Source: Candidatus Obscuribacteraceae bacterium
Lineage (GTDB): Bacteria > Cyanobacteriota > Vampirovibrionia > Obscuribacterales > Obscuribacteraceae
DNA: 64,000 nucleotides
Assembly (NCBI GenBank): GCA_044229845.1
Contig: JBGASG010000005.1
Location: 160,001 to 224,000, forward strand
Direction of reading: 5' to 3'
The translations under genes were made by a program, and so were the position numbers. Under the pieces are notes generated by a model that searched no databases, was not told the DNA's origin, and worked only from the letters and a program-made list of their open reading frames with translations. Shown piece by piece: positions 25,683-38,123 of this stretch (position 1 is the first letter of the stretch; each line of letters starts with the position of its first letter).

Positions 25683-28600
25683 GTGGCTAATGACGCCCCA
25701 GAAGTTAAGGGTCCTCCCCAGGAGGATAACCACGTCGAAGATGAATTCGACGAGTTTGACTATGGCGACCATGATGCGCACGATCACCAGGACCTCGGCG
25801 ACCAGATGTATGCCTCGGGCGGGTCGTTCGACAACATTGTCACCAACGGATTTGTACGCACCGGCAGCTCTCTCGGCGACCTGAACACAGGCTCTCTGTA
25901 TCACAGTGACGTGCTGCCGACGGGAACCAGCAGCGCCTACTCACTGCCTGATACGGGCAACGGCGGCGTTCCAAAAGACGGCAAAGACCCCAAAAAAGAC
26001 CCTAGCAAGGACGCCAAAGACGGCCTGACCAGCCTCAAAGACGTTTTCAGCAATTTCGCCGGACAACTCGCAGACGGCGCCGCGGACTGGGCAAGCAAGC
26101 AAGTCGACGCGGTTTCCGCCTGGGGCAAGAAACAACTCCTGGGAATCCCTGAAGACGCCAAGATTTTCTACAACTCCAAAGAAAAAGCATACGGATACAC
26201 GACGCAAAAGACCGACGACAAGGGAAACACAGTTGATACGGTGGTGACGTTTACGGGTGTAGAGGACGCCCGCACCGAGCGTACCACCACCAAGAACCAG
26301 CAAGGGCAAGTAATCAGCGACAGCATGACCAAAGAGTTCTCGGACGGCTCCAGAACGTTTGAGAATAAAACGTTCAACGACAAAGGCGTACTGACACAGC
26401 ACCAGCGCTCTTATGAAGATGCACAAGATGGTGGCGGATACAGCCGCGTGATCCGCTACGACGACAACGGCAAGCTCTTAGACGTCAGCATGTCCAAGTA
26501 CACCGACGACGGGCGCGTCGAGGGTGAGCCGACCAAGGTGACCCAAGCCGATATCGACGCGTTCAAAGCCAAGCTGGGACCGAATGGCGAAAAACTGCTG
26601 ACCCAGGCCGGCAACGGCAACGAGATCTTCGGATACACCGCTCTCATGGCTCTGGGCGAAGGCAGCATCGATAAGGGTATGGAGCGCCTCAATACTTTTG
26701 GCAAGACGCCGGAAGATGCCGTCAAGCGCCTCAAACAGTTCGGCAGCGGCGACCTGGAAGAAGCCGCGCACCGCATCTTGCGCGTCGGCGATGGCAAATA
26801 CGACAAAGGCATCGAGCGCCTCACCACATTTGGTGGCGGCGAGATACTCAAAGGCATGCACCGTCTTGAGCACCTGGGAAGTCACTCCGGCAACGCAGGA
26901 CTGGGCATCGAGAACATCAAGACGCTTGCCGGTAAGTACGACTTCGAAGTAGGAATGCAAAACCTGCTGGAGATCGCTAAATCGAACGGCGGCAAGAATT
27001 ATGCGGACGCTATTAAGTTCCTCGATGAGATGGGCGGCGGATTGCCTGAACAGACCATCAAGGCCCTGATCAAATTCGGCAATGGTGATGCCGGCAAGGT
27101 GACCGAGTTCGCCAAGCGCCTGGGCGACGGCGACGCCAAAGCCGGTTATGCGATGCTCATCGATCAGATGGCCGACGGCGGCAATATGCTCGACGGCGTA
27201 AATCACTTCCACAAACTCGATAGAGATCACAAGACAGAAACAGTACTGGCACAGCTGGAGCAGAATGAAACTGGCTGCACTGGCGGTGTCTGTGCGATCA
27301 AACATTTCAGTCGCGATAGAGAAGGACGGGAGAGCTTCCAGCTGGGAGTGGAAGCTCGCAATAAGTTCGACGGCAAGAAGACCGGCGAAGAGCACGACAC
27401 CGATCTGGCTCACCAAAACTTCATGGCCTTCTGCACCAAGCCGGGCGACACGCCGGATGAAGAACCGCACGTCGACATGGAATGGGGCGTCAATCAAGGG
27501 CTCAAGTTAACGCAAGACAAAGATGGCGCCGTCAACGGTATCGACACCGCCGACTACATCGCTTCAATAGATAACGTCAACAACGATTTCGCCGTCGGCA
27601 TGGATCTGCTGAAGAAAACCAGCGATCACGGATTGGCCGGTGACGGCGTCGACAACACGCTGGCGACTGGCGATGATGGAACGCTTGCTTCCGCCATGGC
27701 CAACTGGCAGAAGGCATCCACCGATGGCACCAATGCCAGTGGTATCGGCAATATCATCAATTTCTCCGACGGACACAGTCTATATAGCGGTGGACTACAG
27801 AACCTGATCCAGATCGATCCTGACGGCCTGATGAGCGGTCGCATTCAGGATGTGATCAACTTCGGCGATCATAAAAATGGCGTTCTCAATTTCGAATCCG
27901 GAACCGCTAATCTGCTGCTAGTCAATCCAGTCATCAGCAGCGGCATCGCCGACGTTGCCCGTTTCGGCGACAAGCATGCGGACGGCACTCCGGCAATATT
28001 TAGAGATGGCACAGCCAACCTTTTGCTGGTCAATCCCGACGCCAACGTTGAGAACAGTGAACGTATCAAGAGCGTCATCAACGCCAGCGACGTGGTCGAC
28101 GGTAAGCAGACTTTCGCCGGCGGCACCGACAACGTAATCAGGATCAACGAGACCGGCAAGATCTCCGACAACATCGGATTGATTATCAACTTTGGAAACA
28201 AATCCGAAGGCTATTCATTTGACGGCGGCATCGCCAACTTGCATCGCATCGCCGGCGAACGCCAGCTGAGCGTCAACATCGACTCGGTGAAGGCATTCGG
28301 CGACGACAAGACCTTTGCCGGCGGCAGCGCCAACCTTGTGCGGGTCGACGGAGAACGCGACATCGGTCGCAATATAGACTCGGTTAAATCATTCAGCGAT
28401 GTCGGCTTGACTGGTGACGGCGCCTTCGATGGCGGAACTTCCAACCTGCACCGCATGGCTCCCGACGCTCCGCTGAGAGCCAATATCGACCGTCTGATCG
28501 CCTTCAGCGATCCCGGCGAAGGTGGGCGCAAGACATTCGATGGCGGCAGTGACAACGTGCATCGCATCTCGCCGGATTCTCCGCCGAGCGCCAACATCGA

Positions 28601-38123: not shown

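Follow-up and report, generated by a model that had tools for sequence, protein, structure and literature searches.

The window analysed here, 64,000 nucleotides long, comes from an Obscuribacteraceae bacterium (Vampirovibrionia, Obscuribacterales), a relative of the cyanobacteria that does not photosynthesise, whose assembly comprises 5.16 Mb at 88% completeness (G000; window at G000:C22:160001-224000). It exhibits two colinear ORFs on the forward strand, encoding giant paralogous proteins that carry, towards their C-terminus, a conserved hydrophobic helix followed by a LysM fold. ORF A (25683..31730) is 2015 aa long when read from the GTG at 25683, where the database protein P0003 also starts; its frame is open from a TTG at 25641 (2029 aa), from which A residue numbers are counted. 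ORF B (32337..38123) is 1928 aa long and shares the architecture of A. The initial annotation of this DNA had described two colinear ORFs of about 2000 aa, their parts in the order given below, with no Sec signal, and was right on each count: no N-terminal hydrophobic stretch was found in A or B. Both have orthologs in a congeneric genome (G001). Judged by dN/dS against these orthologs, A and B are real genes under purifying selection throughout, since the ratio is 0.01-0.28 in every region; no diversifying selection on the stalk-like part was seen between the two genomes. RNA contigs match A at 99% identity or more in three sludge RNA libraries from three studies, which is weak evidence of transcription, DNA carry-over being possible; over B they occupy few bins only, missing cover being no evidence. 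Close strains are present in sludge and biofilm. An Rfam scan of 24000-42000 gave no match, and a promoter and terminator scan around A and B stayed near chance level.

A begins with an acidic, His-rich and probably disordered segment lacking a signal peptide (25683..26165), followed by a YD-like beta-hairpin region (26166..26540), a first block of 15-16-aa helix repeats that starts the solenoid (26541..27275) and a CxxxxC patch (CTGGVC, 27276..27293). Then come 13 copies of a 37-aa two-helix unit (27783..29189), a second block of 15-16-aa helix repeats (29190..29690), an Ala/Gly-rich linker with a basic pre-helix segment (29691..30710), a conserved "G-x-E" hydrophobic helix (30711..30788), the LysM fold (30924..31214) and an Ala-rich tail with the clade-typical end DPTAVA...LKPKYA (31236..31730). 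In B, the acidic/His-rich start and YD-like beta region (32337..33086) are followed by 15-16-aa helix repeats up to a CRNGVC patch (33087..33842), 13 copies of the 37-aa unit, one with an insertion of about 28 aa (34329..35843), a second block of 15-16-aa helix repeats (35844..36356), the G-x-E helix (37341..37418) and the LysM-fold module (37521..37811). The N-terminal segments have a net charge per 100 aa of -10.6 (A) and -16 (B). The C-x3-4-C motif is found in 13 of 21 members of the A/B clade, and about two thirds of the 21 end in P-K-[YF]-[AV] or a close variant, often following DPTAVAT; this conserved end is possibly a protease or export tag.

Neither whole protein matches a Pfam or NCBIfam family. 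A YD-like beta region does lie where it had been reported, spanning about 125 aa, but its label is weak: RHS/YD matches are below threshold and occur in paralogs and homologs, not in A or B. The C-terminal module had been called nearly identical between the copies, which overstates the case. Identity between A and B is 67% in the helix, 73% in the LysM-like part and 13-39% in the remaining regions. The stretch from helix to LysM exhibits 67% amino acid and 69% nucleotide identity; recent gene conversion between the two modules was rejected as unlikely because dS is 1.26.

The central part of both proteins is a helical-repeat solenoid. Lag 37 gives the top autocorrelation peak in A and B (mean BLOSUM score 0.60 and 0.33, the next lags reaching -0.47 and -0.35, harmonic 74 aside). 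A hidden Markov model (HMM) of the 37-aa unit matches 2 of 17,354 ORFs of the genome, A and B alone, and defines 13 copies in each; orthologs have 9-15. The period and copy number given in the initial annotation thus hold, with the refinement that the 37-aa unit is a doublet of a 15-16-aa helix, a form present in 3 of 107 genomes. The basic unit is a single helix of 10-11 residues plus a Gly loop, grouped across relatives at periods of 15, 16, 34, 37, 39, 46 or 67; in the A/B clade such short helices make up about 1,050 residues (301-1350 of A). In a confident structure model, 412 residues fold as one rod-type solenoid, in which the second 15-16-aa block runs on from the 37-aa block; the first block lies outside the modelled part. 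The units are far from identical, with many variable columns, a net acidic composition and invariant Asn positions. Of 39 units, 38 have Asp and Gly at positions 1 and 6 of the loop, and 36 have Gly at position 12.

This repeat had been reported as unrecognised, and it remains so against Pfam families, PDB sequences and solved structures. The repeat block of A had no Pfam match at E<=1, Pfam-type scans of whole A, B or homologs gave no repeat family, and the PDB-sequence scan of the repeat gave no significant match. Foldseek searches with the repeat and module models returned no match at E<=0.001, and the ESM Atlas gave no usable lead for the repeat. Sequence profiles of HEAT, ARM, TPR, ankyrin, PPR, Pumilio, Sel1 and mTERF repeats were likewise without a match. 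Two shortened forms (P0012, 491 aa; P0016, 392 aa), possibly products of assembly collapse, were set aside; P0015 and P0017-P0019 are unrelated repeat proteins. A confident repeat model with no clear structural match matters for the classification and design of repeat proteins.

The helix ahead of the LysM fold carries the motif KRY..G.E.ALAA..A.AG.AR.R in 25 of 25 aligned members; in A and B it is the KKLALIG...SAGVAR.RG helix of the initial annotation. An HMM detects it in 67 of 78 family proteins, most others being register variants; counts for the "family" refer to genome family f1, presumably equivalent to Obscuribacteraceae. The helix lies 150-500 aa from the protein end, and none of 64 full-length family members has an N-terminal hydrophobic stretch or signal peptide. 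PGF-, PEP- and GlyGly-CTERM sorting signals were rejected on this position, the missing signal peptide and the lack of an NCBIfam match. A prepilin-like cleavage site was also rejected: Gly stands two residues before Glu, not five as in the prepilin consensus. A predicted complex between the helix and the LysM module of the same protein scored 0.00 (controls not folded) and was counted neither way.

The C-terminal module of A and B exhibits the LysM beta-alpha-alpha-beta fold, as the initial annotation had proposed, with a beta-hairpin of about 15 residues in the loop that joins helix 2 to strand 2 and a helix-strand-helix C-terminal extension. PF01476 gave no match to A or B at E<=1; among the paralogs those with two LysM-like modules alone pass, and hhalign links the A/B-type module to them (97.6%). 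Scans of helix and module against Pfam, NCBIfam and PDB sequences gave no significant direct match, PHROGs returned weak baseplate/LysM matches for the module, and ESM Atlas leads to LysM clusters stayed below 0.9. With the glycan-site residues of AtlA (T13, L14, D37-V41 loop) mapped by motif rather than by superposition, the A/B module departs from the glycan-binding pattern: the glycan-contacting Thr is replaced by Asp (E-D-L instead of D-T-L) in 20 of 21 clade members, whereas 46 of 48 other family rows retain the Thr. The substitution T13A in AtlA cuts affinity 60-fold (PMC4083421). The fold stands, but peptidoglycan binding by the A and B modules is doubtful because of this replacement.

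The helix-LysM module is found in nearly every family genome, in multiple copies, and in 0 of 173 other genomes of the class searched. The segments before the helix vary in sequence and in length (48-1936 aa), so that the proposal of a constant module joined to a variable stalk is valid for the family as a whole. G000 itself has five full-length single-LysM genes with the helix, which is confined to them there. Named homologs come from Obscuribacterales bacteria, Ca. Obscuribacter phosphatis, "Cyanobacteria bacterium SZAS-4" and "bacterium ADurb.Bin425", all annotated as "hypothetical protein". As a hallmark of the lineage, the module offers a ready-made marker for the family. A stand-alone A/B-type LysM module of 125 aa with no helix (C1:923856-924233, L002), also present in G001, may be a remnant or a free module. 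The double-LysM paralogs form a cluster of four large genes (1295-3443 aa; C18:209349-233801, L006 and L007), with one more at C8:363826-368499; each has two LysM-like modules after an E/R-rich helix and no G-x-E helix, and two of them end in a weak DUF7718 match.

Another four large LysM proteins of G000 (C1:320762, C19:317249, C8:43851, C1:959633) have no signal peptide and no clear hydrophobic helix (maximal KD19 hydrophobicity 0.79, 0.96, 1.4 and 1.57); one other LysM protein has a normal anchor. Because these four lack both features, they suggest that LysM domains in this lineage may reach their ligand through Sec-independent export.

In a comparison of 20 loci, no partner gene, operon or immunity-like gene was conserved beyond the genus; the neighbours vary, housekeeping genes making up most of them. 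A fusion of TPR and rhomboid protease (23030-24901) lies two genes upstream of A; it was rejected as a processing partner as it is adjacent in the same genus only among these loci. A 32-codon ORF consisting of a signal peptide only (31915-32013) separates A and B; it is the remnant of a secreted Gly/Asn/His-rich protein of 108 aa, intact in G001, and is followed by a two-way terminator-like hairpin (32045-32064). Downstream of B, three signal-less genes with hydrophilic starts and an "L..LP.h.h" stretch are candidate secreted enzymes: an HExxH zincin-like protein (38277-39290; weak ATLF match, E 2e-5), a protein with a putative SleB-like motif, matching no family (39450-40667), and a YD-repeat protein with HExxH (44858-47470). 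The zincin-like neighbour was seen in the same genus only, and the SleB-like-motif gene is not among the genes called at the G001 locus. An N-terminal "LP-h-h" export motif was rejected: its position-specific scoring matrix had been seeded on N-termini, so that the enrichment was circular.

A candidate exporter is encoded elsewhere on the chromosome. At C17:20254-31270 (L063) and C13:100089-102914 (L064) lie VirB4/TraC-like loci; the VirB4/TraC-like ATPase has four membrane proteins on its flanks, two small and two large, that belong to no known family, and it adjoins riboflavin-synthesis and NADH dehydrogenase genes. A single query (E<=1e-100) found this ATPase in 77 of 79 genomes of the order and in 0 of 171 others, the best matches having 75-86% identity. 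It looks like a domesticated machine derived from a type IV secretion system (T4SS). We found no description of this order-wide ATPase in the literature searched; the T4SS described for Vampirovibrio is T-type and partly plasmid-borne (PMC4451040). A search with PF03135 found nothing in G000, and also missed the VirB4-like genes found otherwise. G000 further holds Tad-like loci (C19:375454-386095 and C22:233884-239113, the second 10 kb past the window end), a PilT-like ATPase and two secretins, Tad and PilT being our reading of the genes. Searches of this 88%-complete genome for FlhA (flagellar or type III secretion), sheath and VipB found none of them.

Taken together, there is about an even chance that A and B are exported, envelope-anchored, adhesin-like stalks. 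The chain would leave the cell independently of Sec, the VirB4-type machine being the best candidate and Tad pili the second. The C-terminal module would stay at the envelope, with the helix in the membrane or docked on the exporter, and its LysM fold would rest on glycan or, in the clade with the Thr-to-Asp change, on a partner protein. The solenoid, which a disulfide and cations at the D-x-x-x-x-G loops may stiffen, would hold the YD-like head away from the cell for contact with surfaces, floc matrix or other cells. The constant module would thereby handle export or anchoring, and the solenoid would set the reach of the head. YD-like hairpins, C-x3-4-C motifs and Asp+Gly loops, traits usual in exported proteins, appear to count for export. 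A more specific version, in which the domesticated VirB4-type machine exports a family-wide set of signal-less giant G-x-E and LysM proteins, and one clade added to their module a novel type of alpha-solenoid, re-amplified at many periods from a single 15-16-residue helix into length-tunable contact stalks, is possible though unlikely. Signal-less giant LysM proteins together with an order-wide VirB4-type ATPase make an undescribed export route directly testable.

Several observations weigh against this reading. We infer the export, location and ligand of A and B from sequence and models. The co-distribution of VirB4 and module reflects one lineage, not independent events, and the VirB4 genes are unlinked to A/B-type genes. 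The role of the VirB4-type machine as a protein exporter is unproven, because neither the VirD4 C-terminal domain (coupling protein) nor VirB6/TrbL was found in the 88%-complete G000 and VirB10/TrbI-like matches fell below the cut-off. None of 65 family members scores for the "LP" motif of the nearby signal-less genes, and the strict Ca-binding loop that would favour cation stiffening occurs in just 6 of 39 units. Finally, the helix of A and B reaches the hydrophobicity needed in a membrane anchor (KD19 2.21 and 2.05), and its flanks carry a net charge per 100 aa of +10 and +7.4 upstream against -13.9 and -26.9 downstream.

These last values fit a single-pass inner-membrane protein (N-in/C-out), with the G-x-E helix as signal-anchor, a periplasmic LysM on peptidoglycan and a cytoplasmic scaffold or landmark of 1,700 residues, which would work like PodJ or like FimV/HubP in reverse. 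Such a protein, possible though unlikely, would explain the missing signal peptide with no special exporter, and the helix-LysM gap of 12-329 aa resembles a flexible tether. Across the family the topology signal is divided: net charge is higher upstream of the helix in 28 of 43 rows, but K/R counts in 24 of 43 only. The median KD19 over 25 rows is just 1.63, where the quartiles of anchor-like segments are 1.77-2.23, so that a membrane helix is borderline. An acidic residue lies inside the helix in all 43 scored rows of 54 (40 Glu, 3 Asp). Two copies of the helix, present in 8 of 78 proteins (none in 23 by the same relaxed pattern), would flip the side of the LysM; they seem more in keeping with a docking motif than with an anchor that sets topology. 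The double-LysM paralogs do without the G-x-E helix altogether, and YD-like and Cys features are unusual in the cytoplasm.

A cytoplasmic or membrane-peripheral scaffold, whose LysM fold binds a protein or ion rather than glycan as in Kbp and baseplate LysM folds, is improbable: the glycan-contacting Thr is retained in most other family rows, and no conserved partner gene lies nearby. A secreted effector or effector carrier of the Rhs type, acting on prey or competitors with LysM aiming at the target wall, is less probable still. The YD-like region, the downstream zincin-like and SleB-like-motif genes and a predatory relative in the class (PMC4451040) speak for it. Yet no catalytic or toxin family was found in A, B or 31 homologs scanned, the constant part is the C-terminal end, the genes are followed by no immunity-like gene, purifying selection acts throughout and the zincin neighbour is limited to the genus; the effector-carrier option of the initial annotation is therefore not borne out. 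Its ruler option, in which A and B would belong to the baseplate or ruler of a contractile injection system or phage tail, is largely refuted and barely credible: injection-system baseplate LysM folds are the best VIA matches, 13 of 25 module rows match the PHROG baseplate-wedge family at E<=0.1 and weak tape-measure matches occur in BFVD (E>=0.02), but the phage-type sheath PF04984 is found in 0 of 107 order genomes, VipB was not found in G000 (the tube family was not searched), and the genes stand singly among housekeeping genes.

Comparison with known systems places A and B apart from each. Rhs/YD polymorphic toxins have a variable C-terminal toxin with an immunity gene and a long YD shell; A and B, with a conserved C-terminal end and a YD-like region of limited span, fit neither feature. 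Baseplate LysM-like folds (9gtp, 7aeb, 8kea, P2 gpX) differ in that the A/B module ends proteins of 300-3400 aa in an order with no sheath genes, and E. coli Kbp (7pvc) has a BON domain that A and B lack. From PF01476, the E. faecalis AtlA LysM and the T. thermophilus NlpC/P60 LysM (4uz2), the A/B module differs by its hairpin, extension and Thr-to-Asp change, by the lack of a direct Pfam match and of a signal peptide, and by its coupling to the G-x-E helix. The solenoid may be set beside the two-helix alpha-solenoids of TAL/BurrH, mTERF, designed left-handed alpha/alpha toroids, HEAT, ARM and TPR (PMC11514114). TAL/BurrH membership was rejected: their repeats of 33-35 aa are near-identical with two variable positions, whereas the A/B units vary in many columns and are net acidic. 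EF-hands share the helix-Asp loop-helix arrangement and a 37-aa period, with a weak match to a CDPK EF-hand (E 0.89); membership (ligands at 1, 3 and 5, Glu at 12; Dx[DN]xDG) was rejected on the rarity of the strict loop, Gly rather than Glu at position 12 and the lack of a Pfam EF-hand match.

Our searches, with subscription journals mostly outside them and supplements not covered, found no published description of A/B-type proteins and no literature combining Obscuribacterales or Vampirovibrionia with LysM. A likeness exists to the giant repeat-built adhesins and attachment proteins that predatory or symbiotic bacteria have, which are also very large, repeat-rich and proposed to act in cell contact (bioRxiv 10.1101/2023.11.21.568195; bioRxiv 10.64898/2026.03.19.712371). 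A and B differ from these by their size of about 2,000 aa, their helical repeats and their own C-terminal module, no SecA, C39, dockerin, RTX or haemagglutinin domain being detected. In sludge, soil and water systems Obscuribacterales are often met, and their means of cell contact are almost undescribed. Lying outside all tested repeat, toxin, sorting-signal and injection-system families, A and B would work like a LysM-anchored repeat adhesin or tether, which is a familiar kind of protein.
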